Shown here: in pieces, positions 2,876 to 64,000 of the stretch
Position numbering within the stretch: position 1 is the stretch's first letter
How the letters are laid out: every line of letters begins with the position of its first letter
From: Saprospiraceae bacterium
GTDB lineage: Bacteria > Bacteroidota > Bacteroidia > Chitinophagales > Saprospiraceae
Direction: 5' to 3'
Assembly: GCA_016717105.1 (NCBI GenBank)
Contig: JADKGF010000001.1
Coordinates: forward strand, 23,887-87,886
DNA: 64,000 nt
Made by a program: the position numbers and the translations under genes
Notes under the pieces: generated by a model
What the model was told of the DNA's origin: nothing
Database searches by the model: none
Seen by the model: only the letters and a program-made list of their open reading frames with translations

Positions 2876-3366
2876 AACGTATTAATTTTAAACAAAAATA
2901 GGCTTTTTTATTTAAAAAGATAAGTTTTGTAGAATATACTTTTGTTAAAGTTCAAGAATGTCGTCTGAGATACTTTAAAAGGTAACTATTCGCCAAACTA
3001 ATTTTAGATATGTCTAATAAAATTTGTAAAGTTTTAACTTGACTATTTCTATGTTTTTGTCAAATTATAACTTGACTTTTATGATATGTTGTAGAACTTT
3101 AGCTTTACTTTATTAGAAATTATCCTTGTTTGCTTCTCCTGCATTTATTTCTCCTAACTTTTCATAAATAGAAGCCACAAAGCTCAAGATCTCAGCTTTA
3201 ATATTATAACGTGGCACTAATACTCCCCGGAAATAAAATCTATTTAAGCTACAGAAGAAAAGATACATATTTTAAAAAAATTACAATGCAATAATAACTA
3301 TCATGTTTTGATAAAAATATAGTTATGATGTTTAATTAAAATTTAATTTTTGACATACCAATAAAT

Positions 3367-4760
3367 TTAAATGTTTTTTTTACTTCCTATACAAAACTTA
3401 CTAAAGATACTCTCCAACAAATCATCCGTCGATACTTCACCGGTGATAGTGCCGAGATGAAAAAGTGCTTCTCTGATATCCATCGCCACAAAGTCTGATG
3501 ATAGACCTGTGTCCATTCCTGCCAATACTTTTTCGAGACTTAGTTTTGTGTGTTCTAATGCCTCGTAGTGGCGTGCATTGCTGATGATCGTGCCTTCTGC
3601 TTGGTTGTGGTTTTTGATGTATTGTGAGAAGTAAGCCAATAATGGTTGAAGTGTTGACTTGTATTTGGCTGTGATGAGTAGTGTTTTTGTGCCACTTTTT
3701 TCTGCGATGGCTTGAGTTTTAGGTTCGGCGAGTGCGGCTGAGATAGTATCCGCTTTATTGAGCAGGATGACGCCAGTTTGATCGCTGGTAAGTGCTAGGT
3801 TTTGGAATTCAGCAGTAGTTTCTTCTACGCTTTTATGGATGTCACTGATGAAAAGCACGATTTCCGCTTCTCGGAGTTTTTGCCTTGACCTTTCTATACC
3901 TAAGCCTTCAAGGATATCTGATGTTTCACGGAGGCCTGCAGTATCTATAAATCGAAACATGATGCCATCTATCACCAAGGTATCTTCGATAAAATCTCTT
4001 GTCGTGCCTGCTATGTCACTTACCAAGGCTTTTTCTTCGTCGAGGATCGTATTGAGCAAAGTAGATTTACCAGCATTGGGCGCGCCTATGATAGCAACGG
4101 GAATACCTTCTTTGATACTATTGCCCCAACGAAATGAATCAAGCAAAGGATTGATGACATTAATTATCTTGAAGATAAGGTCTTTGAGCCTTCCACGATG
4201 GGCAAATTCTACATCTTCTTCTGAAAAGTCAAGTTCCAGTTCGATTAGAGCGGCAAAATCAATCAACTCCTGTCTTAGCTCCTTGAGTTTTGACGAAAAA
4301 TGTCCTTTGAGTTGATTTAGTGCGATTTCAGTTGACTTGGCAGAAGATGCATGGATTAAGTCAGCCACAGCTTCTGCTTGAGAGAGATCTAGTCGTCCAT
4401 TTAGAAAGGCGCGCAGCGTAAATTCTCCCGGATAAGCCAATTTGGCTCCGTTTTTTATTGCTAGGGAAATGATGGATTGGACCAATTGTGGTGAGCCGTG
4501 GCAAGATATCTCGGTACTATCTTCTGTAGTGAAAGACTTAGGTGCCCTGAATAATGTGACCATTACCTCATCGATCTCCTTCTCTCCATCTACGATCCAA
4601 CCATAATGTACTGTATGGGAATCCGCATCACGAAGTATTTTGCCTTTAAAATTCTATCGGTAATGGAAATTGCTTCCTTTCCGGACAATCGAATGATGGC
4701 AATCGCACTTTGTCCTTGTGGTGTAGCTGGAGCAATGATGGTATCTGTAAGGTGATTCAT
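3367..4760 (-). CDS. mnmE: tRNA modification GTPase MnmE, reading frame broken once (ORF-track piece 3367..4563 plus an unlisted 5' piece starting at 4760)
   Basis: G-domain motifs [15 protein letters not shown] and LNKAD are present, with a C-terminal FCIG. The canonical N-terminus [37 protein letters not shown] is encoded upstream in another frame. The junction lies at the A4 run 4648-4651. One added base gives ...[46 protein letters not shown]... and a 465-codon gene. Confidence 0.9.
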
Positions 4761-47357: not shown

Positions 47358-48386
47358 TTATTCCTCCGCCCAGACTTTACAGCCTTCAGTGCAATTGGTA
47401 CAAATATCGATCTTATCTCTACCTTGTAGCAATGATGATCTGAATTGCTGGTATAATGGACCTTGCCAGATGTCTCTGAATTTCAACTCTTTCAGATTGC
47501 CAAGTCTGTGGGTTGCATCTTTGTCAAAACAACATGGTACTACCAATCCATCCCAAGTAATGACACAAGCGTGCCATAGCTTCCAACAATGGTTCAATAA
47601 TTTGTTTTTTACACGGTAAGTGCCGTCACTCTGCTTGCTATATCTTGAGTATTTTTGTTGTTCTGGTATAAGCTCATTTCCGTGTTCGTAATCATACACT
47701 TGCGCCGTTTTGAGTTTTACTTCGTCGATGCCTATCTCTTTTGCCAGCTTGTAGATTTCGGGGATTTGATGTTCGTTGGGCTTTACTACCAAAAACTGAA
47801 ATATCAAATGTGGCGTCGAAGAATTGAGTTGTTTTTTCCATTTTACGACATTTCGGGCACCTTGCAATACGGCTTCTAGATTGCCTTCTTTACGGTAATT
47901 TTCGTATACTTCTTGCGTCGTGCCATCTACAGAAATGATCAGTCTGTCCAATCCCGATTCGATGGTTTTTCTCGCATTGTCATCATTCAGAAAATGGCCA
48001 TTGGTGGATGTAATGGTGTAAATGCCCTTCTCAGAAGCATATTTGACCATGTCGAGAAACTTAGGATTGATGTATGGCTCACCTTGAAAATAAAAGATCA
48101 AGTACATCAAGTCTTTGTACAAATCATCAATGGTTGCTCTAAAGAAATCTTCTTTTAGATTTCCTGTTTCACGAGTGAAGATACGCAGACCAGATGGACA
48201 TTCGGGACATCGCAAGTTACAAGCAGTTGTCGGCTCAAAAGAAATCGTCATGGGTAAGCCCCATTGGATCGGTTTTTTTGTCAGCTTTGTGATGTGAAAT
48301 GATAAAAATATCTTGACTATATTCAAAATACGCCTGAAGGTCATCTTGCTGATGAACCGTAATATGTCTTTGTAATACAGCGTCAT
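47358..48386 (-). CDS. Radical SAM enzyme with C-terminal SPASM-type Cys cluster domain
   Basis: EPTTACNLRCPECPSG is a CX3CX2C motif. The C-terminal region CWKLWHACVITWDGLVVPCCFDKD...DICTNCTEGCKVW is Cys-rich in the SPASM pattern. Confidence 0.85.
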   Translation of the reverse strand: MTLYYKDILRFISKMTFRRILNIVKIFLSFHITKLTKKPIQWGLPMTISFEPTTACNLRCPECPSGLRIFTRETGNLKEDFFRATIDDLYKDLMYLIFYFQGEPYINPKFLDMVKYASEKGIYTITSTNGHFLNDDNARKTIESGLDRLIISVDGTTQEVYENYRKEGNLEAVLQGARNVVKWKKQLNSSTPHLIFQFLVVKPNEHQIPEIYKLAKEIGIDEVKLKTAQVYDYEHGNELIPEQQKYSRYSKQSDGTYRVKNKLLNHCWKLWHACVITWDGLVVPCCFDKDATHRLGNLKELKFRDIWQGPLYQQFRSSLLQGRDKIDICTNCTEGCKVWAEE

Positions 48387-48404
48387 ATGATATCTAGTAT
48401 CTGA

Positions 48405-49133
48405 TCAACCATACAACTCATAATGAATCTGAGACTTGTCATATCCCATTTTTATGATGAGATTCACTACCGCTTCGTCGATCATACTCGACCAACCACA
48501 CAAGTAAAACTGTCTATCTGGCGATACTTCAGCGTATTGTTTCAAGTAAATATCATGAATGTACCCATGATGAAAGTCAGGATGATCGTCCCGCGAAAGT
48601 GCTACATCGTATTTGAAGTTGGTTTTTTCTTCTACAATCTTTTGAAATTCATCTTTATAAAGTATATCTGAAGCAGTGCGACAGCCAAAAATAAGGTGAA
48701 TCTTCTTAAAACTCATGTCATTTTTGATCACTTTATTGATCATGCTTCTAAATGGTGCTATTCCTGTGCCGGTGCAGATAAATACTAGTTCTGTTTGTAA
48801 ATTTCCTGGCAAAACAAATCCGCCATCTGGGCCTTTAAATTTCAATTCAGTGCCTTCGACTACCTCATGGAAAAGGTATTTTGTTCCTAGACCTTCGTCA
48901 GATTGTACGATACATAATTCCAAGATATTGGTCCCATCTGGATGGTTTGCTATCGAATAACTGCGCCACCTGTTGAGTCTTTTATCGCTAACAGGTAAGT
49001 CTAAAGTAATAAATTGCCCAGGCAAAAAGTCAAAAATTGTTTCATTCGGATGTACCTCAATAAAAAATTGTCTTACCGAAGTTGTTAATTGTCGAATTTG
49101 TAAGACCTTGCCCTGATACCACTGTGTTGCCAT
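48405..49133 (-). CDS. Ferredoxin-NADP reductase-type flavoprotein (FAD/NAD(P)-binding oxidoreductase)
   Basis: RSYSIAN (RxYS FAD motif), GTGIAPF (NAD(P) motif), YLCGWSSMIDE, and a terminal ...HYELYG. Confidence 0.85.
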   Translation of the reverse strand: MATQWYQGKVLQIRQLTTSVRQFFIEVHPNETIFDFLPGQFITLDLPVSDKRLNRWRSYSIANHPDGTNILELCIVQSDEGLGTKYLFHEVVEGTELKFKGPDGGFVLPGNLQTELVFICTGTGIAPFRSMINKVIKNDMSFKKIHLIFGCRTASDILYKDEFQKIVEEKTNFKYDVALSRDDHPDFHHGYIHDIYLKQYAEVSPDRQFYLCGWSSMIDEAVVNLIIKMGYDKSQIHYELYG

Positions 49134-49217
49134 AAATTTTTTTGATACGATTTACAACAACGATCTGTTCAAAAAGATTTTATTTACTTCTTTTGCACCT
49201 CTAAGTTTGCGCAATTG

Positions 49218-52200
49218 TCACAAGCCGACCCATTTTAAAGTTGACATTTTACCTGATTTCTTGTCTTTAATACTTATGAGATACAAACCAGGTAAAAAGC
49301 GACTTCCATCCAAGGTAAATTCTGTAGATGTACTGCCCGGTCCGAGGTAAGTCTGTTTGTCTCCTGACGATGCATCTGCTTTCCACCTAACTTGTCCTTG
49401 CATATCCATGATTTGAATTTCTGTATCATCTGGTAGATTTAGGAGTCGAAATACCGTTGCTCCATTGCTTAGTCTTACAGGATTGGGATTGACATAGATA
49501 TTGTCTAATGTTGTATTATTTTGAGCATTAGGATCCAATTTTTCAAATCCAAATTCATAAACTGGGTTATCGCCAGTTGTCAGGCAAGCTCTTTCTTTTT
49601 CAACCTGATATATTCGACTGCTAGAATACATATTGTCCACTCTTATACTGATCTTAAGGTCATTTGGAATGAGCCCGTTGGTCAATGATGCAAGTGACAA
49701 TACTGGAAAAGATGTCCATGTAATAGCTGATATTACCTTAGCTTTATTAATTATACTAGGACCGGCATTGGTTGTTGGGTTTCGTTTTAGTCTTTCACCA
49801 AATGCCGCACATCCATCATACTCCATTCTGGTTACATAAATATAGTGTTGTGCTCCAGCAATTAATGCTAATTTTTGCTCTGATGGTAGATTTGAATTTA
49901 ACAATTCTTCTATTATCAATTCAGATGATGGATTAAAGATCATATCGCCTCCAATTGGTTTTTGGCCTTGCATATGCGTGGCATTTTCACCAGAATAGAT
50001 ACTGTTTTCGCCAAAAAATATATTCAATCGCCTTCCTGTTTCGACATCAACTGCGTATCCCGGGAAGTAAGAAAAACCTGTAGAATTTGGAATCTCAACG
50101 CCATTTTCATCTTTTGATGGTGATATACGCATTTCAAAATTTTTAGCATTTCCTATTGAAGCTAAGCCAATATCAAATTGATCATTGAAAGCTGTTTCTA
50201 CCACAATACATTTACTCCATTTTGATTTATCGTTTATAAAAATTATGTCTACATTATTTAAATCTCGATATCTTAAGCTTGGCGCATTTTCAGTTGTAAC
50301 AAGTGCCATGACATCTCTGCTTGCAGGGCTCAGGTAATAAGGTAAATCTACATCCGTTCTAAATTTTGACGATATAAAAGGCGTAAAAAATCCATCTCCC
50401 ATTTGAGAAAGTTTAGCTTCTGGATCTCTGACATTATTATCTTTGACAAAATCAAATGATTTATAGATTTGCCCATCATAAATACCACCATCTTTGATAG
50501 CATTGTACCAAAATGGTCCTGATTTATCTTTGTATTCAAGCCTTACATCTACGCCACCATTGTTTTCGTAGGCATTCTCGCCTGGATTTTCATAATTTTG
50601 AATTGTGATTGAAAATCCTAATTCGTTGATCATATATTCTTTGACGTACCACAGCGGTTTGTCTTCCAGTAGTACAATATTGTTTGTAATATCCGTAAGT
50701 TTCCACACTGCATCTTCCTTATATTTACAGAAATCAAAATAATTATCCATTGTGCCTGTGATTTCCAAACGGTATTTGTTCTTATTTATTTTTGTTACAT
50801 CCGTTACCACAGCTTGCAATGGTCCGTATCCTGTTTTGTAATTTACCTTACCGTCGAAGTTCAGACTTAAGATTTTGTCATACATGTCGTCTTCCATCTT
50901 AAGAAATACATGTGGATTGCCTTCACCAGAAATTCTAGTTACTTTCAATTGAGGCAAGTCTTCATCGATATTAAGTTTTGGAGTTATGGTGTACACTTTA
51001 AAGTTGTTTGTTCCTTCGATATATGGCGTTTTTTGTCCCAAATTTTCGATACTGTCGAAATCCTTCCAATTATTATAGGCATAGGCCACAGCGCAAAAAT
51101 GATAATATTTGTTATTGTAAAGCGCCTTATCACCAGTGGCAAATAAGTCTTCTGTGATATCAAAGGAATGTTGAAGTCCTACATTTTCAGCTTTAACCTT
51201 TAATACTTTTTGCCAAATATACTTTTCTGCGATTGCGGATGTATCAGGATTTAATACCGATTGCCAATTGTAAATATCTTGAATATTATTTTTAATATCG
51301 CATTGGGCAATCAATCTAGCATACTTCGGATTACTCAGTTGATCTATTCTAACTTTATTATTGGCAACTTGATATACTTTGTATCCTTCAAATTTAAATT
51401 CTGAATCTACGTTGGACCCAAGATTAGGAATAGTATAGGAAAAACTTTCATTAAAATTATTTGACGATTTGGCATTTTCTAGTTTCAGTGTTAAAGCTAA
51501 ATTTTTCTGTTCGAAAGTAATATCTGGCGCATCTGGTCCTATAAAATAATAATCCTTTAGACAGTTTTCAAATAAATCTTTTGCAATTTCATTGGCATAT
51601 CTCAACTTAGATAGATCAGGACATGGATATGGCACACCTAAAACTGAAAAAACAGACATAGTGAGTGTGTTGGTTGACCCAGGTAACATCAACATAGGAC
51701 CAACGGACATTACCATACTATTTTTATAATTTGATAAATTAGCAGTGCACATAGACCATCCATTTGGGTCATTTGGGTCATCTGGAAAAGCAAACTTTGT
51801 AGTATCCACACTTCCAGGATTATAGCCATTCTGTCCAAAAGTTAGTGGTGTTCCATCTGCCCAAAATCCTTTCATTGGCCAATAAAAATCAATTTCTTTT
51901 ACTATATAGTCAATAATATTAGTTTTATTTTCATAATTTATAAAAGACGACATCTGTCCGATGACCAAAGTATCTACATCACCGGTAAGAGGTTCGGGAT
52001 CAATCAATATTTTTTTTCTATCAGCATCGTACATGATATTTCCATTTGCATCTCTTTTAAAAATTTTTACAACTTTCGGACCTTGGACAAAGTTTAGTCC
52101 AATCATAGGTATTTCATCTTTATAAGCATTAATTCCACCACATGTACTTTTTTCTCCATCTATTGCGTCTTCATTGTAGATATATGCCATACCTAATTCG

Positions 52201-53127
52201 GGATTGCAACCTACATAGTCATCATTATAACATCCTAATTCTGGATCAATCCACCAACTAAAGTAACAATCTATAAGGTCTTCAGGGGCCTTGCTTATAA
52301 GTTTATATTGATAGAATGTCATATCATTGAGTTCGTTTGTAGTATTATAAGCAAATGCACTCACTTGAAATTCCATTTGCAACTTTGCTTGTTTTGTAAA
52401 CGTCTGTGGACCACCTGCATCATTAAAAATAAAAAAATTAATCTCCGCCGGTATTTTGTATATTCCATTTGCACATGAAGCATTATCTATGATGGGATAA
52501 TCACCCAAACAAGGATCATAATAGCCATCATCATTCTCATCAAAATAATTGGCCAATGGTTGGTCAGGTAGTTTCCACCCATATTTTTCTTCAAAATACG
52601 GATTTCCTTGAGCTGGCCAGTATAAAATGTCGTCTGTAATATCATTGCAACTCAATCCTGTTTGGTTTTCCAAAGCTTCTTTATAGTTCTGTATATGCTG
52701 CATGATATTATTTCCTTTGACAGTAAAGATTTTATCCCATTGGTCACAGGCTGTTGCTTCGGTTGTACCTAAAATATCTAATGGTCCTGAATAGAAATCA
52801 CTACCATCATAACTATGAAATTTGGCAGAAACCTTGATGGAGCCTGAACGATCCACGCCACCCATCCAAACTCCAGCGCCATAAATAGCAGATACAGGTA
52901 TAGACACAGATGCTGGCGTTAAATAATTTCCTCATAATATTTATCATTAAACAAATTACCACCTGAAAATATTTTAGCTCTGACGTTATTTACGTGCATC
53001 TCATACGCAGCAACAGGACTGGTACAAGCTGCCAAAAATAAATCTGTTTTTGTGGAGATGTGGCATGTAATCCTAGAGAAAGACAAAAAAACCAGCCTAT
53101 AATGATGATTGATTTTAAATTTTTCAT
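49218..53127 (-). CDS. Large (~1300 aa) secreted T9SS-cargo protein, paralogue B, frame broken twice near the 5' end (ORF pieces 49218..52907, 52919..53158 and an unlisted first piece from 53127)
   Basis: The ATG at 53127 gives MKNLKSIIIIGWFFCLSLGLHATSPQK, near-identical to the paralogue A signal peptide. Frame changes lie at T5 53047-53051 (T6 in paralogue A) and near 52927-52933. The C-terminal ~90 aa form a T9SS CTD (IYVNPNPVRLSN...GLYLISIKDKKSGKMSTLKWVGL). Confidence 0.85.
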
Positions 53128-53164
53128 CGTATTCTTTTTTGATTTGGTTCATATTCAAAAATTG

Positions 53165-56100
53165 TCACAAGCCGACCCATTTTAAGGTGGACATTTTACC
53201 TGATTTCTTGTCTTTGATACTTATGAGATACAAACCAGGTAAAAAGCGACTTCCTTCCAAGGTAAATTCTGTAGATGTACTGCCCGGTCCGAGGTAAGTC
53301 TGTTTGTCACCAGATGATGCGTCTGCTTTCCACCTAACTTGTCCTTGCATATCCATGATTTGAATTTCTGTATCATCTGGTAGATTTAGGAGTCGAAATA
53401 CAGTCGAATTATTGCTTAGTCTTACAGGATTGGGATTAACATAGATATTGTCTAATGTTATATTATTTTGAGCATTAGGATCCAATTTTTCAAATCCAAA
53501 TTCATAAACTGGGTTATCGCCAGTTGTCAGGCAAGCTCTTTCTTTTTCAACCTGATATATTCGACTGCTAGAATACGTATTGTCCACTCTTATGCTTACT
53601 GTAAGGTCATTGGGGATGAGCCCGTTGGTCAATGATGCAAGTGATAATACTGGAAAAGATGTCCATGTAATAGCTGATATTACCTTAGCTTTATTAATTA
53701 TACTAGGACCGGCACCTGATGCTGAACGTTTTAGTCTTTCACCAAATGCCGCACATCCATCATACTCCATTCTGGTTACATAAATATAATGTTGTGCTCC
53801 AGCAATTAATGCTAATATTTGCTCTGATGGTAGATTTGAATTTAACAATTCTTCTATTATCAATTCAGATGATGGATTAAAGATCATATCGCCTCCAATT
53901 GGTTTTTGGCCTTGCATATGCGTGGCATTTTCACCAGAATAGATACTGTTTTCACCAAAAAATATATTCAATCGCTTTCCTGTTTCGACATCAACTGCAT
54001 ATCCTGGGAAGTAAGAAAAACCTGTAGAGACTGGAATTTCAACGCCATTTTCATCTATTGATGGTGATATACGCATTTCAAAATTTTTTGTATTGCCAAT
54101 TGTTTCAAGACCTGTAGTTGTTTGGTCAACGAATCCCGTTTCTACCACAATACATTTACTCCACTTAGATTTATCGCTTGTAAAAATTATGTCCACATTA
54201 TTTAAATCCCTATATCTTAAGCTTGGCGCATTTGCAGACGTAACATAAGCCATAACATCTCTGTTTGCAGGGCTCAAGTAATAAGGAAAGTCAAATTGGG
54301 TTTCAAATTTGGATGTTATAAAAGGCGTAAAAAATCCATCTCCCATTCGTGAAAGTTTAGCATCTGGATCTTTGACATTATTATCTTTGACAAAATCAAA
54401 TGATTTATAGATTTGCCCATCATAAATACCACCATCTTTGATCGCATTGTACCAAAATGGTCCTGTTTTGTCTTTGTATTCAAGCCTTACATCAACGCCA
54501 CCATTGTTTTCGTAGGCATTCTCGCCTGGATTTTCATAATTTTGAATTGTGATTGAAAATCCTAATTCATTAAGCATGTATTCTTTGACGGACCACAGTG
54601 GTTTGTCTTCAAGTAGTACAATATTGTTTGTAATATCCGTAAGTTTCCACACTGCATCTTCCTTATATTTACAGAAATCGAAATAATTATCCATTGTGCC
54701 TGTGATTTCCAAACGGTATTTGTTCTTATTTATTTTTGTTACATCCGTTACCACAGCTTGCAATGGTCCGTATCCTGTTTTATAATTTACCTTGCCGTCG
54801 AAGTTCGGACTCAAGATTTTGTCATACATGTCGTCTTCCATCTTAAGAAATACATGTGGATTGCCTTCACCAGAAATTCTTGTTACTTTGAGTTGTGGTA
54901 CATTTTCATCGAGCGTAAATTTTGGAGCTATAGTGTACACCTTGAAGTTGTTAGTTCCTTCGATATATGGTGTTTTTTGTCCCAAATTTTCGATACTGTC
55001 GAAATCCTTCCAATTATTATGTGCATAAGCCACAGCACAAAAATGATAATTTTTACTATTGATCAACGTCTTTTCTCCAGTCGCAAATAAATCTTCAGTA
55101 ATATTATATGTATGTTGAAGCCCTTCATTTTCACCTTTAACTTTTAATACTTTTTGCCAAATGTACTTTTCCGCACTTGCTGATGTATCAGGATTTAGGG
55201 ACAAATTCCAATTATAAATATCTTGTACATTATTTTTGATATCGGTCTGCCCTACCAATCTTGCATATTGCGGATCATTAAGCTGATCAACTCTAACCTT
55301 TGCATTTGCTAATTGATATACTTTGTATCCTTCAAATCTGAATTTTGAATCCAAATTGGGTCCAAGATTAGGAATGGTATAGGAAAAACCTTCATTAAAA
55401 TTATTTGACTTTTTACCGTTTTCCAGTTTCAGTGTTAATGCTAAATTTTTCTGTTCGAAAGTAATATCTGGCGCATCAGGCCCTGTGAAATATTCATTCA
55501 ATAAACAATTATCAAATAAATCTTGTGCAATTCTATCGGCATATCTCAACTTAGTAAGGTCAGGACAAGGATATGGCACATCTAAAACTGAAAAAACAGA
55601 CAAAGTGAGTGTATTGGTTGTTCCTGGTGACATCAACATAGAACCAACGGACATTAACATTCTTCTATCTTCTTTTGGCAAATTAGCTGTGCACATAGAC
55701 CAACCATTAGGATCATTTGGGTCATCGGGAAATGCAAATTTCGTAGTGTCTACACTTCCAGGATTATACCCATTACCTCCGAATGTCATTGGTGTCTTAT
55801 CTAACCAATAGCCCTTCATATAACTATAAAACCCATCCTCTTTACCTCGTTGTGGATCAGAAACAAACTGATCTCTTGGACTTTGATAAATAAAAGATGA
55901 CATCTGACCTATGACCAAGGTATCCGCCCTTCCAGAAAATGGTTCGGGATCCATCAATATTTTTTTCCCAGCCGCATCGTAAATAAAGTTACCATTAGCA
56001 TCTCTTTTGAAAACTTTTACAACTTTCGGTCCTTGAACAAAGTCTATTCCAAGAATGGGTATTTCATCGCCATAAGTATTTATGCCTCCACAACCACTAT

Positions 56101-57079
56101 CTTCTCCATCAATGGCATCTTCATTGTAAATATATGCCATTCCTAATTCTGGGTCACAACCTATGTAATCATCGGAATAACATCCTAAATCTGGATCAAG
56201 CCACCAACTAAAGTAACAGTCTATAAGTTCATCTGGTGACTTGTTTATCATTTTATATTGGTAGAATGTCATATCATTGAGTTCGTTTGTGGTATTATAA
56301 GCAAAAGCATTTACTTGAAATTCCATTTGCATACTTTTAGGCCCAGAAAGCGTTTGTGTTCCGCCAGCATCATTAAAAATAAAAAAATTAATCTCAGTCG
56401 GAATTTTGTACTTTTCTTCTGAACATGATGCAATATCTAAAATGGGATAATCACCTAAACAAGGATTATAGTGTCCGTCATTATTCTGATCAAAATAATT
56501 AGCCAATGGTTGATCTGGTAGTTTCCATCCATATTTTTCTTCAAAAAATGGATTTCCTTGAGCTGGCCAATATAAAATGTCGTCTGAAATATCATTACAA
56601 CTTAAAAATGTTTGGTTTTCCAAAGCTTCTTTATAGTTCTGTATATGCTGAAGGATATTACTTCCTTTGACTGTAAAGATTTTGTCCCATTGGCTACAAT
56701 TTGTTGCTTCGGTTGTCCCTAGTATATCTAATGGCCCTGCAAAGAAATCAAAACCTTCACTTTTATACGTGATAGCAGATAGCTTGATGGAGCCTGCTCG
56801 ATCAACGCCACCCATCCACACTCCGCCACTATAAATGGCCGAAACAGTTGGAGACGCAGATGCCGGTGTAAAATAGTTTCCACTACTTTGATCCTTATTA
56901 AACAAAAGACCACCGGAATATAATCTAGCCCTAACATTGTTCACTTGCATCTCGTATGTAGCAACAGGTCTGACACAAGATGCCAACAATAAATCTGTTT
57001 TTTGTGGAGATGTAGCATTAACTCCTAGAGAAAGGCAAAAAAACCAGCCTATAATGATGATTGATTTTAAATTTTTCAT
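53165..57079 (-). CDS. Large (1304 aa) secreted T9SS-cargo protein, paralogue A, unknown function
   Basis: An intact ORF with signal peptide MKNLKSIIIIGWFFCLSLGVNA and a C-terminal T9SS CTD. I recognise no enzymatic motif in between. Confidence 0.85.
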   Translation of the reverse strand: MKNLKSIIIIGWFFCLSLGVNATSPQKTDLLLASCVRPVATYEMQVNNVRARLYSGGLLFNKDQSSGNYFTPASASPTVSAIYSGGVWMGGVDRAGSIKLSAITYKSEGFDFFAGPLDILGTTEATNCSQWDKIFTVKGSNILQHIQNYKEALENQTFLSCNDISDDILYWPAQGNPFFEEKYGWKLPDQPLANYFDQNNDGHYNPCLGDYPILDIASCSEEKYKIPTEINFFIFNDAGGTQTLSGPKSMQMEFQVNAFAYNTTNELNDMTFYQYKMINKSPDELIDCYFSWWLDPDLGCYSDDYIGCDPELGMAYIYNEDAIDGEDSGCGGINTYGDEIPILGIDFVQGPKVVKVFKRDANGNFIYDAAGKKILMDPEPFSGRADTLVIGQMSSFIYQSPRDQFVSDPQRGKEDGFYSYMKGYWLDKTPMTFGGNGYNPGSVDTTKFAFPDDPNDPNGWSMCTANLPKEDRRMLMSVGSMLMSPGTTNTLTLSVFSVLDVPYPCPDLTKLRYADRIAQDLFDNCLLNEYFTGPDAPDITFEQKNLALTLKLENGKKSNNFNEGFSYTIPNLGPNLDSKFRFEGYKVYQLANAKVRVDQLNDPQYARLVGQTDIKNNVQDIYNWNLSLNPDTSASAEKYIWQKVLKVKGENEGLQHTYNITEDLFATGEKTLINSKNYHFCAVAYAHNNWKDFDSIENLGQKTPYIEGTNNFKVYTIAPKFTLDENVPQLKVTRISGEGNPHVFLKMEDDMYDKILSPNFDGKVNYKTGYGPLQAVVTDVTKINKNKYRLEITGTMDNYFDFCKYKEDAVWKLTDITNNIVLLEDKPLWSVKEYMLNELGFSITIQNYENPGENAYENNGGVDVRLEYKDKTGPFWYNAIKDGGIYDGQIYKSFDFVKDNNVKDPDAKLSRMGDGFFTPFITSKFETQFDFPYYLSPANRDVMAYVTSANAPSLRYRDLNNVDIIFTSDKSKWSKCIVVETGFVDQTTTGLETIGNTKNFEMRISPSIDENGVEIPVSTGFSYFPGYAVDVETGKRLNIFFGENSIYSGENATHMQGQKPIGGDMIFNPSSELIIEELLNSNLPSEQILALIAGAQHYIYVTRMEYDGCAAFGERLKRSASGAGPSIINKAKVISAITWTSFPVLSLASLTNGLIPNDLTVSIRVDNTYSSSRIYQVEKERACLTTGDNPVYEFGFEKLDPNAQNNITLDNIYVNPNPVRLSNNSTVFRLLNLPDDTEIQIMDMQGQVRWKADASSGDKQTYLGPGSTSTEFTLEGSRFLPGLYLISIKDKKSGKMSTLKWVGL

Positions 57080-57193
57080 CGTATTCTTTTTTAATTTGTT
57101 TTATATTCAGTCCAAATTTAATGATAACATTCTATTAATCATTAAATTATTAGGATTTAATATCAAATCTGTACCTAAGGCGACTAAAATGCG

Positions 57194-57201
57194 TAATTTT
57201 G
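57194..57201 (+). promoter_or_regulatory. Candidate Bacteroidota -7 promoter box
   Basis: TAATTTTG (TAnnTTTG) ends 17 nt before the GTG start at 57219. Confidence 0.3.
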
Positions 57202-57218
57202 TTATAAATTATTAAAAC

Positions 57219-58985
57219 GTGCAGATAAAATTCAGCCTATTGATTGGTTTTTTTATATCACTAATACAAACATCCGCTCAGGATATAAACATTCATAATA
57301 TGATACAAAATCTGGAAATTCCTTTTGATAAAAACACAAATCAGACGGCTACTTATGAAGAGATTCGGACATTTTATAATCATCTCAATAAGATGAATGA
57401 AATGGTCCAAGTGTCAGATTTTGGGATGACAGACAGCGGGCATCCATTACAAGTAGTAGTCATAGATAAAGATGCTAATTTCTCTCCTGAGCAGATAAGA
57501 AAAGCTGGAAAAGCTATCGTTTGGATCAATAATGGAATCCATCCTGGAGAACCTGATGGCATCGATGCTACAATGTTATTTGTAAGAGAGTTGATGACAA
57601 AAAATCCAAATTGGCTTGACAATGTAAGTCTTGTAATCATACCTGTGTACAATATTGATGGATGTATAAATAGGGCCAGCCATAGTAGAGCCAATCAAAA
57701 TGGACCTGAAACTTATGGCTTTAGAGCCAATGCCAAGAATCTGGATCTCAATCGAGATTTTATCAAATGTGATAGCAAAAATGCAGAAACTTTCAATCGT
57801 TTGTTTAATGAATGGAGCCCGGATATCATGATTGATACCCATACTTCTAATGGTGCTGATTATCAATATACAATGACGCTTATTGCCACCCAAAAAGACA
57901 AACTTCATCCATTGCTTGGTGACTTTCTTAGCCAAAAAATGTTGCCGGTTTTATATGATGATATGAAGGCTGATGGTTGGGAAATGATACCTTATGTCAA
58001 TACTAATGGACTGCCTGAAACAGGGATTTACGGTTTTTTAGATAGTCCCAGATATTCATCAGGTTATGCAGCACTACATCACACCATTAGTTTTATGCCA
58101 GAAACGCACATGCTCAAGCCTTACAAAGATCGGGTATTGAGCACAAAAGCCTTTATTGAAATATGTATAAAGTTTATATCAGAAAATCATAAAGACCTAT
58201 TGCAAACCAGAAACAAGGTAAAAGAATTGATAAAAATGCAGGAAGATTTTGCACTTCAATATGCCCTTGACAAAAAGAAAAAAGACAGCATTCTATTTAA
58301 AGGTTATACAGCAGGTTATAAAAAAAGTCTGGTGAGCGGACAAGATCGGTTGTACTATGACCGTAATAAACCTTGGGAAAAAAACATTAATTATTACAAT
58401 CATTATATTCCAGAATTGACAATAAAAAAGCCAGTAGCTTATGTGATACCCCAAGCCTATGATCGAATCATCCAACTCATGAAGTGGAATGGTGTAAAAA
58501 TTGAAACAATAGAAGCCGATACACTGATGGATGTAGAGATGTATAGAATAGAAAAATATGAGACAAGCAAGTCGCCCTACGAAGGACATTATCCACATTC
58601 TCAGACCAAAGTTTCAGCATTTCAAACAACAAAAAAATGTTATAAAGGTGATTTTATGATCACGACAAATCAAGAATCCAATAGATATATTGTAGAAACC
58701 TTGGAACCTCAAGCTCCAGACAGTTATTTCAATTGGAATTTTTTTGATGGAATATTATCTCAAAAAGAATATTATTCGGATTATGTTTTTGAAGATTCAG
58801 CTGGTGAAATTTTGGAAAATGACCCAGATTTAAGGCATCGCTTGGATCAAAATCGCCAGATGGATACCAAATTTGCCAATGATGCAAGAGCCCAATTGGA
58901 TTTTGTGTACAAAAACTCAGCATATTATGAACCAACGTACATGCTCTATCCAGTTACAAGAATTTTAAATCAAAAAACCAATTAG
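57219..58985 (+). CDS. Secreted M14-family zinc carboxypeptidase-like protein
   Basis: Signal peptide MQIKFSLLIGFFISLIQTSAQ. NNGIHPGEPDG fits the HxxE zinc-ligand motif, with NLDLNRDF and IDTHTSNG as in M14 peptidases. Confidence 0.8.
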   Translation: MQIKFSLLIGFFISLIQTSAQDINIHNMIQNLEIPFDKNTNQTATYEEIRTFYNHLNKMNEMVQVSDFGMTDSGHPLQVVVIDKDANFSPEQIRKAGKAIVWINNGIHPGEPDGIDATMLFVRELMTKNPNWLDNVSLVIIPVYNIDGCINRASHSRANQNGPETYGFRANAKNLDLNRDFIKCDSKNAETFNRLFNEWSPDIMIDTHTSNGADYQYTMTLIATQKDKLHPLLGDFLSQKMLPVLYDDMKADGWEMIPYVNTNGLPETGIYGFLDSPRYSSGYAALHHTISFMPETHMLKPYKDRVLSTKAFIEICIKFISENHKDLLQTRNKVKELIKMQEDFALQYALDKKKKDSILFKGYTAGYKKSLVSGQDRLYYDRNKPWEKNINYYNHYIPELTIKKPVAYVIPQAYDRIIQLMKWNGVKIETIEADTLMDVEMYRIEKYETSKSPYEGHYPHSQTKVSAFQTTKKCYKGDFMITTNQESNRYIVETLEPQAPDSYFNWNFFDGILSQKEYYSDYVFEDSAGEILENDPDLRHRLDQNRQMDTKFANDARAQLDFVYKNSAYYEPTYMLYPVTRILNQKTN

Positions 58986-58986
58986 T

Positions 58987-59859
58987 ATGCGTGTAGCTGG
59001 ATTTACGTTTATAAAAAATGCAATCTTGTATGATTATCCGATTTATGAATCCATTTCTTCTATTCTACCACTCTGCGACGAATTGGTGGTAGCTGTCGGC
59101 AAAAGTGATGATGCCACACTTGACTTGATAAAATCAATAAATTCGCCAAAAATTCAAATTATTGAGACCATCTGGGACGAAAGCCAGAGAGAAGGAGGCC
59201 GAGTTTTGGCCCTAGAGACCGATAAAGCATTTCAGGCCATAAGCGATCAAGCAGATTGGTGTTTTTATATTCAAGGTGATGAAGTCATTCATGAAAATGA
59301 TTATGATAATATTAGGAATGCAATGGCAAAATACAAGGATGATCCTAAAATAGATGGATTATTATTCGAATATTGTCATCTATACGGTTCGTACGATTAT
59401 ATGGCTACTTCATCAGGTTGGTACAAAAATGAAATCCGGATTGTCAAAAACATTAAGCGCATTTATTCGTTCAGAGATGCCCAAGGATTCCGTAAGGATA
59501 ACAATAAAAAGCTGTGTGTCGCAAAAACAGGTGCAACTGTGTATCATTACGGTTGGGTAAAGCCACCATCTAAAATGCAAGCCAAACAAAAATCCTTTCA
59601 GAAACTGTGGCATGATGACCAATGGGTTTCAACCCATGTCGCCGATTCAGAAGAATTTGATTATAGTGGAATTGATGTTTTGGAGCCATTCAATGGTACA
59701 CATCCGTTGGTTATGCAGGAAAGAATTGCTTCAAAAAACTGGAAATTTGACAGAGATATCTCTCAAAATCGTAAAACAGTCAAAGAGACTGTCAAAAAGT
59801 GGTTTAGGCAGTATTTAGGTTTGGATTTTACCTATAAAAATTATATTCTAAAAAAATAA
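58987..59859 (+). CDS. Glycosyltransferase-like protein (GT2-like fold)
   Basis: The N-terminus MRVAGFTFIKNAILYDYPIYESISSILPLCDELVVAVGKSDD matches a family I recall as annotated GT2-like in Bacteroidota. It starts 1 nt after the M14 stop. Confidence 0.6.
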   Translation: MRVAGFTFIKNAILYDYPIYESISSILPLCDELVVAVGKSDDATLDLIKSINSPKIQIIETIWDESQREGGRVLALETDKAFQAISDQADWCFYIQGDEVIHENDYDNIRNAMAKYKDDPKIDGLLFEYCHLYGSYDYMATSSGWYKNEIRIVKNIKRIYSFRDAQGFRKDNNKKLCVAKTGATVYHYGWVKPPSKMQAKQKSFQKLWHDDQWVSTHVADSEEFDYSGIDVLEPFNGTHPLVMQERIASKNWKFDRDISQNRKTVKETVKKWFRQYLGLDFTYKNYILKK

Positions 59860-59876
59860 CAGGTGCGAAGTCGAGC

Positions 59877-60341
59877 CTATAGTTTTATCTTCTTTAGTCG
59901 ATCCATGTCTCTTTTACTGTCTCGCTCTTTGATACTTTCACGTTTATCAAAAGCTTTTTTACCTTGTGCAAGCGCCACTTCAAGTTTCGCAAAACCTCGT
60001 TCGGTAAAGAACAGTCTGTATGGAACAATCGTCAGTCCTTTTTCGGTAACTCTTCTTTCCAATTTGTGCAACTCAGATTTGTGTAGTAAAAGTCGCCTAT
60101 CTCTACGGGCATCGTGATTGTAAATAGTACCATGATCATACTCTGCGATAAACAAACTTTTTACTGTCAGATTGCCATTATCGAAAAGACAATAAGCATC
60201 ATTTAGGTTGGCCAATCCTTGTCTCAATGCCTTCACTTCAGTTCCGGTCAATACCAAGCCTGCTTCAAACATTTGAATGAAACTATATTCAAATTTGGCC
60301 TTTCGGTTTACTATTTCCTTGGTGACAATCTTTGTTCCCAT
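59877..60341 (-). CDS. smpB: SsrA-binding protein
   Basis: The core NRKAKFEY...GTEVKALR...LLLHKSEL...GLTIVPYRLFF...AKLEVALAQGKK is SmpB. The conserved protein starts at the internal Met (cat at 60339-60341). The longer track ORF (to 60512) adds 57 non-conserved residues. Confidence 0.93.
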   Translation of the reverse strand: MGTKIVTKEIVNRKAKFEYSFIQMFEAGLVLTGTEVKALRQGLANLNDAYCLFDNGNLTVKSLFIAEYDHGTIYNHDARRDRRLLLHKSELHKLERRVTEKGLTIVPYRLFFTERGFAKLEVALAQGKKAFDKRESIKERDSKRDMDRLKKIKL

Positions 60342-60436
60342 ACCTTGCGAACTGATAAAGTGTGCAAAGATAAGAAATTTTGAGTTGGATTGCCGAAAAA
60401 TATCTAATTTTGAACCTTTAATATATACACAATACG

Positions 60437-62445
60437 ATGAAATCACCCAGATTATTAGTAATTTTCCTATGTATTTATGGTTTTTTGATGGAGTCATGTG
60501 TTCCTGATACAAAAACGAAGGTGACAGAAATTCATCTTTCGGTCAACGATAAAGAAATTCAGAAAATTCTCACCTTACAAGACAATCAAGATACAAAGGC
60601 GCTGTATCCATATTTTAGAAGTGAAAATCCTACAGAACGGTACATGGCTGTTTTGGCGTTTGCTTCTATAAAAAACATAGATTCGAAGGATTCTTTAATC
60701 CTCATGTTGCAAGATCCTGTGATGCAGGTACGTGCAGCAGCAGCTTATGCATTGGGGCAAACAGGTGACACAAAAGTGACTGACAGATTGATTAGCGCCT
60801 TCAGAGGCAAAGATACTTTAGAAGTAAACAATCTTTGTAATGCGAATATCCTTGAAGCAGTAGGAAAGACAGGAAATCTCGCAGATCTCAAAGCCTTGGC
60901 TACCGTCAAAACCTATCGAAGCACAGATACTTTGTTGCTATTGGGACAAGCAAGAGCAATATTTAGAATGGCTTTACGCAATATTACATCTGATGAAGGT
61001 ACCTCCAGAATGGTGGACTTATTATATACATCAGCTATACCTTTGCAAGTAAAAATCATTGCAGCCCAATATTTTGCAAGAGCAAAAGATATCAACCTAA
61101 ATCTCTCGAAGGTAAGGCTCACAGAAATTTTCAACAAAGAACGAAACCCTGATATACGTATGGCCTTAGCTACGGGATTCGGCAAGAGCAAAGATCTAGA
61201 GTTTTACCAGCACTAAAGACGGCATTGGTTGCAGAGACAGATTATCGGGTAAAATGCAATATCCTAAGAGCTTTGACCAATTTTCCATATGCAGAAATTA
61301 AGGAATCAGTAATCAACAATTTAAAAAGTGATAATTTGCACGTTGCCATAAGTGCTGCTACCGTATTGCAAACCAATGGCTTCATAGAAGACGTTCCATT
61401 ATATGCTAGTTTTGATACCGTTACTACACCTTGGCAAGTACGTGCTTTGATGAATGGCGCCGTCCTTACCCATACTGCATTGTATTTTACGAAGAGTAAA
61501 GTAGCCTTTACGGAAAGAATTCGAAAGAATATGAAGGATGCTGACTCACCATATGAAAAAGCAGCATATGTCAACGCTATTAGCAAAGATCCATACAATT
61601 ATGCCTTGTTAGGTCAAATTTACACCAGTGAAAAAGATGCAATTATAAAAATTACCGCTTTGGAAGGAATAGGTAATATTTTGAAAAACCCATTATTTTT
61701 CAAGGCTTTTGGCAATGGATTTGGAAAGGTAAAGGCTGAAATGCTCAATATACTTGCAGCCGCTATTTCATCAGGAGATGCTGGACAAATCGCCACAGCA
61801 TCTATTATATTAAAAGATCCTGAATTGGCATGGAAAGAGTGGCTGAAAGACCTGACTTTTATGAAAGATGCGGCGGCCAAACTTAAACTTCCTCAAGAAA
61901 TAGAGACATATAACGAACTCAATTCTTGCATAGCTTATCTGGAAGGTACAGAATACAAACCGAAGACTCCAGAATTAAATCATCCTATTGACTGGACCAT
62001 CTTATCCACCGTCGGAGATTCGAGTATAGCTGCCATCAAAACGTCTCAAGGCTTGATCAGAGTAAAGTTGTATAAAAATATGGCTCCTGGTACAGTGGCA
62101 AATTTTGTGGATTTGATCAATAAGAAATATTATAATGGCAAAATATTTCACCGTGTAGTTCCAAATTTTGTGATTCAAACTGGTTGTCCTCGTGGTGATG
62201 GGTATGGCTCAGCCGATTACTCTATCCGATCCGAATTGCCCCAAATATATTATGATGGTGAAGGATACATCGGTATGGCTTCAGCCGGCAATCATACAGA
62301 AAGTACCCAATGGTTTATAACACATTCAGCCACGCCACATTTAGATGGCAACTATACCATATTTGGAAAAGTAGTAGAAGGTATGGATGTGGTACATAAA
62401 ATACAGCAAGGTGATAAAATCAATGATATCATCTTTGTAAAATAA
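60437..62445 (+). CDS. Lipoprotein with HEAT-like repeats fused to a C-terminal cyclophilin-type peptidyl-prolyl isomerase, frame broken once (ORF pieces 60437..61216 and 61225..62445)
   Basis: LVIFLCIYGFLMESC carries a lipobox. HEAT-like helices follow (VRAAAAYALGQTGD...). The PPIase core reads FHRVVPNFVIQTGCPRGDG...WFITHSATPHLDGNYTIFGKVVEGMDVV. The second frame is open before 61225 (..VLPALKTALVAETDYRVK). The junction lies within 61190-61205. One added base gives 670 codons. Confidence 0.8.
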
Positions 62446-62466
62446 GCGAAATAAAGAATTGTGAAA

Positions 62467-63087
62467 TCACAATATTCTATAGGCAACACCAAACTGGAAA
62501 TTTTGGAGTCTAGTTCGTAAATCAAATGATTCTCCAAATATGTCTGTAAAGTCCAAATCATAAAAATCGACCAAACTACCAGCAAACTGTAGGTGTACAG
62601 ACAATTTATTCATTGGAAAAACGCGCAAACCCACAAGATATGAAGCATCCGTCGGAGTGGATATTTCAATTTCTGCCTTCTGCCAAGCATCCTCTACCTT
62701 GAATGACTCTGACAATCGAAACCCAAGTCCCAATCCAGCATATACAGATATAGGATTTGCGATTTTATACTGAACTTGTGGCAAAAGGTCGAAATATTGT
62801 ATTCTTAATTTGCTTAATTCATTATTATTAGGGTCGTTTTGGAAATACCCTTTTCGTGAAAATTGGACATCAATACCTACGGACCATCTATCTGAGAGTT
62901 TGAATTCAGGTCTTACCGATAAAAAATAATTGGTAGCTGCTTCTGTTTTTATCCAAGTAAATCCTTCAGGAATATCGTCTACATTGATATTTGATAGATT
63001 CAAGCCTGCTCCTCCATGTAATTGAAATTGCGAGTGCGCATTTGTAACCATATAGAAACAAAAAATAAGAGACATTATGTATTTCAT
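62467..63087 (-). CDS. Small outer-membrane beta-barrel protein (OmpA-N/porin-like)
   Basis: Signal peptide MKYIMSLIFCFYMVTNAHSQ, followed by an alternating amphipathic strand pattern and a C-terminal ...FQFGVAYRIL. Confidence 0.65.
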   Translation of the reverse strand: MKYIMSLIFCFYMVTNAHSQFQLHGGAGLNLSNINVDDIPEGFTWIKTEAATNYFLSVRPEFKLSDRWSVGIDVQFSRKGYFQNDPNNNELSKLRIQYFDLLPQVQYKIANPISVYAGLGLGFRLSESFKVEDAWQKAEIEISTPTDASYLVGLRVFPMNKLSVHLQFAGSLVDFYDLDFTDIFGESFDLRTRLQNFQFGVAYRIL

Positions 63088-63171
63088 TGCAATTGTTTTT
63101 AGATTAGTATGAAAACGACCTTTCTAAATTTTTATTGCTATGAAAAATGTTAATGCTTGTTGCTGCTGCTC

Positions 63172-63846
63172 TTATCCTTTTTGTGGTCTGAATGGGTTAG
63201 CCCAATAAACTAATGGTCTGACTTTTTTTGTTTGAATCCAAATTTTGCCTGAGCCTCTGAATTTAGCTACAAGTCCTTCTCCTGAGAGAAATAATGATCG
63301 GTATCCGCCGATGGTCGTTATTTCATATTCCAAGCCTTCTGTAAATCCGACAATATTGCCAGTATCTACCACGTATCCATCATTAACATCAAGTTCTATA
63401 ATAGCACCATAACTATTGAAAAACAAGTCACCACGTCCACTACATTTTATCAAAAATAGTCCTTCACCAGAGAAGAAACCTTTCATAAGGCCTTGAAATT
63501 TTGACTCAACCACGACATCGGTTGACGATGCCAAAAAGCCAGAATTTTGCAAAAATATTGCTTGGTTTCCGTCTAAATAAACATGCTTTATGTCGCCTGG
63601 CATCGATGGTGCGATACCAATTCTTCCAGATCCATTTTTTGTTTTGAATTCATTTATAAAGATAGATTCTCCCGTTAAAAACCGCGATAATCCGCCTTTA
63701 AACTTCGTTTTCATCTCTATGTTTGTATCCATTGTCGCCATGGACGAGGCTTCTACCTTGATAATGGTATCCTGAGGCAATTTGACATCAATGAATGCAT
63801 AATCTGGCGCGCCTTCTATGGTATATTGTAATGAGGTATGTTCCAT
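63172..63846 (-). CDS. AIM24-family (TIGR00266/DUF124-like) protein
   Basis: ...GGLSRFLTGESIFINEF..., ...FFSGEGLFLIKCSGRGDLFFNSYGAI... and ...LFLSGEGLVAKFRGSGKIWIQT are the repeating G-E-G/beta-helix signatures of this family. Confidence 0.75.
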   Translation of the reverse strand: MEHTSLQYTIEGAPDYAFIDVKLPQDTIIKVEASSMATMDTNIEMKTKFKGGLSRFLTGESIFINEFKTKNGSGRIGIAPSMPGDIKHVYLDGNQAIFLQNSGFLASSTDVVVESKFQGLMKGFFSGEGLFLIKCSGRGDLFFNSYGAIIELDVNDGYVVDTGNIVGFTEGLEYEITTIGGYRSLFLSGEGLVAKFRGSGKIWIQTKKVRPLVYWANPFRPQKG

Positions 63847-63880
63847 TTAAATTTTACTTAAGTGATTTTGAATAGTATAT

Positions 63881-64000
63881 TTAACTTTTTATGGCCTTTA
63901 GATGTGGTGTGATTTGCTGGCCGAAACTTGTGGATGAATGAGATTGACACCAAATGCGTCCTTTACCTTTGAATTTACAAACAATACCTTCACCACCGAG
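63881..64000 (-). CDS. Second AIM24-family paralogue, C-terminal 39 codons only (N-terminus beyond the window end)
   Basis: Not in the ORF track. Hand translation of the complement gives LGGEGIVCKFKGKGRIWCQSHSSTSFGQQITPHLKAIKS*, parallel to the C-terminus of the neighbouring gene. Confidence 0.6.
   Translation of the reverse strand, partial: LGGEGIVCKFKGKGRIWCQSHSSTSFGQQITPHLKAIKS

Follow-up and report, generated by a model that had tools for sequence, protein, structure and literature searches.

The 64,000-nucleotide (nt) stretch of the Saprospiraceae bacterium contig JADKGF010000001.1 analysed here (the window) carries on its minus strand two head-to-tail copies of a gene for a large, putatively secreted protein, referred to below as U (upstream) and D (downstream). 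Taken alone, this locus is an ordinary event, namely a diverged tandem duplicate of a secreted-protein gene. What is new is the scale of the protein family to which both copies belong (family X), a three-gene outer-membrane module, T-X-V, in which family X is usually encoded, and a detached, recombining clade of orphan copies that includes the window pair. As for function, U, and D if intact, may be a surface or released protein, exported by Sec and a type IX secretion system (T9SS), that binds or processes an extracellular macromolecule tied to TonB-dependent uptake, with an N-terminal domain that diversifies while the C-terminal domain and the C-terminal sorting domain (CTD) stay uniform. 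We put the chance of this reading somewhat below even.

Family X and the T-X-V module

The search for family X homologues returned 725 matches, with 95-100% of the query covered by nearly all of the 120 listed. Clustering at 50% identity leaves 6262 representatives, none of which has a functional name. Restriction of the family to Saprospiraceae is ruled out by the relatives in Crocinitomicaceae, Sanyastnella, and other Flavobacteriales-labelled genomes that were found by a search from the distant member P0245.

To describe the gene neighbourhood, 80 loci were kept from a scan of one genome per species, open reading frames (ORFs) were called, and the neighbours were clustered. In 67 of these loci X is the middle of three genes read in the same direction, the T-X-V module, whose intergenic gaps have medians of 35 and 69 nt. 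T encodes a TonB-dependent-receptor-like protein of ~1220 amino acids (aa) with CarboxypepD_reg and Plug domains, which has no match to the SusC/RagA models. V encodes a protein of ~350 aa that passes the PorV/PorQ family model NF033709 (112 bits, with a cut-off of 90), fails the PorV, PorQ, and PorV2 equivalog models, and has Flavobacterium johnsoniae PorV as its closest PDB sequence. The module adjoins greA, HIT, and ruvC, with greA and the HIT gene usually following V. The order T-X-V-greA-HIT is also found in loci L089 (4224-18522) and L090 (4315-14270), where X groups with Flavobacteriales-named proteins and where L089 has an extra X gene before greA. Judging by gene order, the synteny between Saprospiraceae and Flavobacteriales-type genomes, including the housekeeping genes greA and HIT, appears to be unusually deep. 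One locus, L087, has the T-X pair only, and the same genome also has a separate orphan copy (L091; cf. L086).

The preliminary description of the locus, made from the DNA sequence without database searches, had concluded that the family has no assignable function. For biochemical function this stands, but it undersells the T-X-V module found in two orders of Bacteroidota. Literature searches on PorV2/PorU2, on Saprospiraceae T9SS modules, and on complexes of TonB-dependent transporters with T9SS cargo yielded no description of family X or of the T-X-V module. Papers on the Bacteroidota β-barrel assembly machinery (BAM) proved to be unrelated.

The tandem pair and its independent assemblies

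According to the repeat finder, positions 49213-57110 contain eight direct-repeat families with start-to-start distances of 3944-3952 nt and identities of 79-98%. Repeats and ORFs thus bear out the tandem duplication, proposed in the preliminary description, of a ~1300-aa gene whose product starts with a Sec-type leader and carries a T9SS sorting domain, and the spacing agrees with the period of 3947 nt claimed for this interval. The reported 37-nt separation of the copies corresponds to the spacer between the U stop codon and the D ATG, the duplicated leader of ~30 nt is seen in the alignment of both 5' ends, and all of the quoted Cys-containing motifs (NPCLGDYP, LGCY, GCGGIN, WSMCTAN, YPCPDL, HFCAVAY, DGCAAFG, and RACLTTG) are present in the translation. 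The remark that the protein looks abundant, however, is not backed by the sequence.

Both copies encode a passenger of ~1200 aa that precedes a canonical type A CTD. At the protein level U and D are 83.8% identical, with DNA identity ranging from 63% to 99% across 150-nt windows. U is 98% identical to P0001, and full-length homologues have 1260-1400 aa. In the U leader, read by eye from the translation, the n-region is basic and the core hydrophobic; a VNA cleavage-type motif is seen, and a lipobox is absent.

The junction between the copies is reproduced in two contigs from different projects. L001, a short-read contig from ENA that carries P0001 and is 97.8% identical to window positions 50099-64000, has the U tail, the spacer, and a second copy, inside which it ends. 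L085, a contig from JGI, starts with the last 61 codons of U, followed by the identical spacer and by P0004, an intact orthologue of D. An assembly artefact caused by mis-joining or repeat expansion might be suspected, given that three Logan contigs have only one copy between the same flanking genes. However, the copies differ at 16% of residues with a synonymous divergence (dS) of 0.39, the U tail/spacer/D start junction is found in both L001 and L085, and the syntenic, far more diverged locus L002 is also two-copy. Because of the divergence of the copies and the two independent assemblies, an artefact can be regarded as ruled out, its residual probability being close to nil.

Gene conversion and copy number

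The divergence between U and D is distributed unevenly. While the overall dS is 0.39, it amounts to 0.43-1.04 in codons 1-700 and to 0.10-0.29 in codons 701-900 and 1001-1304, where DNA identity reaches 95-99%. Low dS together with high DNA identity in these 3' blocks is the mark of gene conversion, beyond constraint alone. Gene conversion has thus homogenised the 3' halves of U and D, and their 5' halves, which encode the N-terminal domain, have diverged. Codon alignments also show that purifying selection has acted on both copies.

Recombinant proteins from related populations confirm this exchange. P0004 is D-like overall, with aa 1001-1200 being 99% identical to U, and P0002 is a chimera with the first 27 aa of U, D-like aa 28-800, and U-like aa 800-1200. 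In the Logan contigs L082-L084, P0002 is the sole X copy between the M14 peptidase and oxidoreductase genes, located behind the upstream region of U (the gene is at 4481-8389 in L082). This one-copy locus fits a recombinational deletion near the identical 5' ends, and the locus apparently exists in two-copy and one-copy recombinant forms among related populations.

The most divergent segment between the copies is aa 401-500 of U (~55580-55879), with 69% aa identity, a nonsynonymous divergence (dN) of 0.27, omega (dN/dS) equal to 0.41, and a 2-codon indel. Lying between well-conserved blocks, it may be a specificity-determining loop.

Copy D and its frameshifts

As written in the window, D is not an intact gene with a signal peptide. 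It consists of three ORFs in three frames, namely 45 aa with the signal peptide (52990-53127), 79 aa (52919-53158), and a body of 1229 aa (49218-52907). The preliminary description overlooked these frameshifts: its statement that each copy has a signal peptide is correct for U, which is a continuous ORF, whereas two 1-nt deletions put the leader of D out of frame with the body.

One explanation is that D is a genuine pseudogene, recently inactivated, in which case the strain would be losing its second copy and returning to a one-copy locus; it is independent of the alternatives discussed for function below. In its favour, two independent 1-nt deletions lie within the first 200 nt of D, and neither is a simple homopolymer-length change. 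Related populations have a single recombinant copy at the locus, and truncated or frameshifted copies occur in the orphan arrays L002, L003, and L018. However, the body forms an open frame of 1229 codons that contains no in-frame stop when aligned with U codon by codon, and omega between the two ranges from 0.08 to 0.41. Moreover, intact D orthologues exist in other samples: both frameshift sites are intact in L001 and in P0004, which has 1302 aa and is 95% identical to D.

The comparison of the window with L001 also argues against inactivation. It reveals six isolated single-base indels (52931, 53046, 58986, 60377, 61205, and 63128), all six being deletions in the window and three of them shortening homopolymers. 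One of these six splits an unrelated conserved gene, which encodes HEAT repeats and a cyclophilin (Pro_isomerase) domain (60437-62445, plus strand) and is broken at ~61205 into the ORFs 60437..61216 and 61225..62445. The break is a 1-nt deletion in a T run, and in L001 the gene is a single one of 669 aa. Since all window indels are deletions, an unrelated gene is split, and intact D orthologues exist, the D frameshifts are probably, though by no means certainly, residual consensus errors, and a genuine pseudogene is fairly unlikely. The one-directional indels, three of which shorten homopolymers, also suggest that the window consensus, possibly a long-read one, is incompletely polished, and therefore other apparent frameshifts in it need caution. 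Programmed frameshifting was rejected as implausible, as it would require two separate +1 events within 120 nt of D.

Domain architecture and predicted fold

The AlphaFold2 (AF2) model of U residues 23-1214, built with 56 homologues (m88912cc10a62), has a mean pLDDT of 86.5, a pTM of 0.54, and few helices. It consists of a β-rich N-terminal domain of ~500 aa, β-sandwiches of immunoglobulin (Ig)/FN3-like type, and an α/β C-terminal domain, and the pTM value would fit a chain of flexibly linked domains. The C-terminal domain modelled alone (m16413d9ab249) yields a pLDDT of 90.3 and a pTM of 0.88.

This α/β domain is the most conserved part of family X. It contains the motifs DKSKWSKCIVVET, FPGYAVDVETGKRLNIFFGENS, GGDMIFNPSS, and QHYIYVTRxEYDGC. 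Residues S1007, R1036, N1038, E1043, D1064, N1068, H1097, and D1107 are invariant among proteins that are 30-60% identical, and U keeps every invariant column. The conservation of these polar residues would suit an active site or a site for ligand binding. C976 and H1097 were considered as a possible Cys-His peptidase pair, but this was rejected, since C976 is located on a β-strand and there is no fold match of papain-like or clan CD type. The N-terminal domain is characterised by conserved Cys residues and the Asp-rich motifs DPDLGCYxDDYIGCD and YNEDAxDG. As for the middle region, its only notable viral match in a Foldseek search of BFVD is an FN3-repeat phage protein, which reflects generic FN3-repeat similarity.

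Sequence searches with the passenger were negative. No Pfam or NCBIfam match was obtained for it in U, and a Pfam scan of 35 diverse members with E-values up to 1 detected only the CTD; SusD/RagB Pfam domains were found neither in U nor in these 35 members. Searches against PDB sequences with U alone and with a 56-sequence profile gave nothing at E-values up to 10. The CTD is recognised by NCBIfam TIGR04183 (26.6 bits for full-length U and 31.8 bits for the isolated CTD, with a cut-off of 23) and scores 16.9 against Pfam PF18962, under the cut-off of 27. The sorting domain noted in the preliminary description is thus confirmed, with the C-terminal 90 aa passing TIGR04183 and remaining below the PF18962 cut-off.

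Structure searches gave little more. Foldseek reports no PDB match for the C-terminal domain (best E-value 4.4) and only weak matches for the full model, namely to proteins of GH94, GH116, and GH65 type and to other carbohydrate-active enzymes (CAZymes), with TM-scores of 0.15-0.22 and a root-mean-square deviation above 9 Å. The output for these CAZyme alignments does not give the matching query residues. They may reflect, at most, a shared supersandwich-like β domain of the N-terminal part. Membership in GH94/GH116/GH65-like families was rejected, since the TM-score is no higher than 0.22 and the helical (α/α)6 catalytic barrel is absent from the model. Apart from the CTD, Pfam, NCBIfam, and PDB searches by sequence and by fold hence reveal no match to a characterised enzyme or adhesin family, in agreement with the earlier view.

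The orphan clade and its sorting domains

In a neighbour-joining tree U and D fall into one clade with the copies of L001-L004, L013, and L018, which is sister to the copies within T-X-V modules (core copies) of one Saprospiraceae subgroup. No locus of this orphan clade has T or V neighbours. In particular, the window pair has neither a gene for an outer-membrane protein with CarboxypepD_reg and Plug domains upstream nor a PorV/PorQ-family gene downstream. Both kinds of copies can be present in one genome, as L002 (orphan and syntenic with the window) and L005 (core module) originate from the same metagenome-assembled genome.

Orphan loci are often tandem arrays that include internally deleted short forms. 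Two of these short forms are copy 1 of L002 (9481-11378), which comprises aa 1-539 plus the CTD, and copy 1 of L003 (7235-9751), with aa 3-726 plus the CTD; in both loci a full-length copy follows downstream. Their composition suggests that the N-terminal domain can act as a stand-alone T9SS cargo.

The two kinds of copies differ in their CTDs. Core CTDs have an extra NPYYGFSxYE segment and end in KWFGVNRKFDPSGL; all five tested are below the TIGR04183 cut-off, and their best match is the C-terminus of the PorZ model. The five orphan CTDs tested are all at or above the cut-off and end in KWVGL or similar. The orphan clade has left the T-X-V module, and its CTD is of the standard type A, either regained or retained.

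The properties of the core copies raise the alternative that X belongs to the T9SS machinery itself, with core X and its barrel being a lineage-specific counterpart of PorZ-PorQ or PorU-PorV and the window copies being spare or degenerate paralogues. The succession of X and a PorV/Q-family gene is like that of porU and porV, the core CTD best matches the C-termini of the PorZ and PorU models, and the module is core-genome-like, given its position beside greA, HIT, and ruvC. PorZ and PorU are, furthermore, anchored by PorQ and PorV (PMC5562754). Similarity to the PorZ and PorU models, however, does not extend beyond the CTD (29 and 13 bits, respectively, with cut-offs of 260 and 420); in the equivalog models NF052228 (PorZ) and NF033707 (PorU) only the CTD aligns, with at most 34.5 and 20.2 bits against the same cut-offs. 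Neither a β-propeller nor a C25/gingipain fold is among the Foldseek matches listed, a Plug-domain partner is not a known feature of the attachment complex, and the window copies have ordinary type A CTDs without a barrel partner. A role of X in the secretion machinery is therefore considered quite improbable.

Possible function

Under the uptake-related reading stated at the outset, U, and D if intact in vivo, would be exported by Sec, and the CTD would then take the protein through the T9SS translocon. If treated as ordinary type A cargo, the protein would have its CTD removed and would be attached to the surface or released. Its passenger would combine a Ca-binding-looking β-supersandwich domain, Ig-like spacers, and the conserved α/β domain of putatively novel fold, in which invariant Ser, Arg, Asn, Glu, Asp, and His residues form a cluster. 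This passenger would bind or process an extracellular macromolecule, and the products would enter via a TonB-dependent transporter. Core X would work docked on a dedicated PorV/Q-like barrel beside the transporter, comparable to the anchoring of PorZ by PorQ and to SusC with its surface partners, and the tandem orphan copies would provide variant N-terminal, ligand-facing specificities. By analogy, because PorU and PorZ are held by PorV and PorQ in Porphyromonas gingivalis, core X may be docked on its V partner, with orphan copies possibly acting as ordinary type A cargo.

A more far-reaching version would see X, T, and V as an undescribed outer-membrane machine. This would be a SusCD-like uptake complex with a 150-kDa subunit of novel fold, delivered by T9SS and docked via its retained CTD on a PorV-family barrel, and the window genes would be free-cargo derivatives that diversify recognition by duplication and gene conversion. 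This version is rather doubtful.

Several points weigh against the uptake-related reading. The binding or processing role of X in TonB-dependent uptake is something that we infer, and the fold matches, with TM-scores no higher than 0.22, include no catalytic domain. There is no transporter or PorV/Q-like neighbour at the window genes, and the genes that do adjoin them are not obviously linked. The transfer of the core-module function to orphan copies is hence an extrapolation, as the window genes lack both partners. The distinction between core and orphan CTDs consists of small score differences among homologous domains. Finally, the one-copy Logan contigs are possibly the result of repeat collapse by the assembler, and the D frameshifts could be real.

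Some of the same data would also suit a non-enzymatic structural surface protein, such as an S-layer or coat component or an adhesin, whose tandem paralogues would provide surface or antigenic variation, e.g., against phages or grazers. The architecture is mostly β with Ig/FN3-like domains, and a catalytic-domain match is absent in Pfam, NCBIfam, and Foldseek searches. Divergence is fast in the N-terminal half, and conversion keeps the C-terminal half uniform; the orphan clade repeatedly shows tandem arrays, copy-number change, and short forms in which the N-terminal domain is joined to the CTD. A precedent is given by the S-layer genes of Tannerella forsythia, TfsA and TfsB, which are adjacent, encode T9SS cargo, and are of similar size. 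On the other hand, the dense invariant S, R, N, E, D, and H residues in the C-terminal domain at 30-60% identity are more like an active or ligand-binding site than a lattice protein, and it would be left unexplained why X is so strictly paired, in two orders, with a transporter-like gene that has a Plug domain. We consider a purely structural role unlikely, though not remote.

Whichever role applies, family X is a family-level lead worth following. Its thousands of members, of ~150 kDa, can be folded confidently but are covered by neither a Pfam nor an NCBIfam model, a structural relative is lacking for the best-conserved domain, and in two or more orders of Bacteroidota the family is tied to a three-gene outer-membrane module. 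In wastewater and the ocean, polymers are degraded to a large part by Saprospiraceae and marine Flavobacteriales. If the module does join T9SS delivery to TonB-dependent uptake, it would represent a new way to build surface nutrient-capture complexes and would offer a way into the large share of T9SS cargo that is annotated as "hypothetical". The U/D locus, in addition, illustrates clearly how gene conversion and changes in copy number act on surface-protein genes in nature.

Features, expression signals, and neighbouring genes

The coordinates of the features within the window are collected in Table 1.

Table 1. Features of the tandem X locus (window positions; all on the minus strand)
Feature	Position	Strand	Basis
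Copy U, family X, 1304 aa: predicted signal peptide, passenger, and T9SS type A CTD	53165..57079	-	Intact ATG-initiated ORF
Sec-type signal peptide of U (predicted), aa 1-22, MKNLKSIIIIGWFFCLSLGVNA	57014..57079	-	Read by eye from translation
N-terminal domain of U, ~aa 23-525, β-rich, supersandwich-like; the half most divergent between U and D	55505..57013	-	AF2 model, conservation, dS 0.43-1.04
Middle region of U, ~aa 535-880, β-sandwich (Ig/FN3-like) domains	54440..55477	-	AF2 secondary structure
Conserved C-terminal α/β domain of U, aa 877-1214	53438..54451	-	Domain model, invariant columns
T9SS type A CTD of U, aa 1215-1304, ending in TLKWVGL	53168..53437	-	TIGR04183
U-D spacer, 37 nt, with duplicated leader and 7-of-8 -7-like box AATTTTTG at 53156-53163	53128..53164	-	Alignments
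Candidate promoter of the pair, TAAATTTG, full TAnnTTTG match 33 nt upstream of the U ATG	57113..57120	-	Sequence reading
Copy D, full-length paralogue, 1303 codons after repair of two deletions, same type A CTD	49218..53127	-	Alignments, codon analysis
First 1-nt deletion in D, ~53046, CACAAAAA-CAG, directly after the signal-peptide codons	53040..53052	-	Alignment vs U, vs L001
Second 1-nt deletion in D, ~52931, TATGA-GGAAA	52925..52937	-	Alignment vs U, vs L001

The consensus of the Bacteroidetes -7 promoter motif is TAnnTTTG. Since a full match precedes U and the terminator scan found no terminator-like hairpin on this strand in the U-D spacer, co-transcription of U and D is plausible. The preliminary description had proposed it on the ground that the duplicated leader has no obvious promoter. 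The 7-of-8 box in the spacer makes a weak promoter of its own possible for D. A scan for sigma-70 promoters and terminators gave fewer sites than shuffled sequence and was uninformative.

Upstream of U, and divergent from it with an intergenic distance of 139 nt, lies a gene with an M14 zinc carboxypeptidase domain (57219-58985, plus strand; a 588-aa ORF, called as 561 aa in L001), which keeps this position wherever the orphan locus occurs in a close relative (L001, L002, L082, and L083). Directly downstream of D, positions 47358-49133 (minus strand) contain two genes, one for an FAD/NAD(P)-binding oxidoreductase of 242 aa and one for a radical-SAM/SPASM protein of 342 aa, and this pair is syntenic in L002 and L082-L085. 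In L001, positions 1816-3899 contain three consecutive AIM24-family genes (219, 228, and 224 aa), the third of which corresponds to the 224-aa ORF at the window edge (63172-63846).

Comparison with known systems

With regard to generic T9SS type A cargo, such as gingipains and the secreted enzymes of F. johnsoniae, the window genes have the same overall layout, i.e., a large passenger between a Sec leader and a sorting domain, the latter being a C-terminal β-sandwich of ~90 aa that scores above the TIGR04183 cut-off. In contrast to such cargo, the X passenger has no Pfam, NCBIfam, or PDB match, and its best-conserved domain has no detectable structural relative.

The S-layer proteins TfsA and TfsB of T. 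forsythia have ~1200-1400 aa and are encoded by adjacent T9SS cargo genes. Unlike U and D, however, they are distinct proteins rather than recent paralogues under gene conversion.

Core copies, but not the window genes, are also reminiscent of the PorZ-PorQ and PorU-PorV pairs of P. gingivalis, in which PorV and PorQ keep PorU and PorZ on the cell surface (PMC5562754). In both cases a T9SS-exported protein is encoded beside a PorV/PorQ-family barrel, and the CTD of core X is closer to those of PorZ and PorU than to the generic type A model; by this analogy, core X may be anchored through its barrel. The bodies of the proteins, however, are unrelated, the T-X-V module has an extra constant Plug-domain gene, and the window copies have no barrel partner and carry ordinary CTDs.

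Finally, the core module is similar to SusC/SusD complexes and utilisomes in that a gene for a TonB-dependent-receptor-like protein (CarboxypepD_reg and Plug) is followed, with operon-like gaps, by the gene for a large, putatively surface-exposed protein. It differs from them in that X is a T9SS-exported protein of ~150 kDa rather than a SusD-like lipoprotein, with a putative role in uptake, that T is outside the SusC/RagA models, and that a PorV/Q-like protein is present as the third component.

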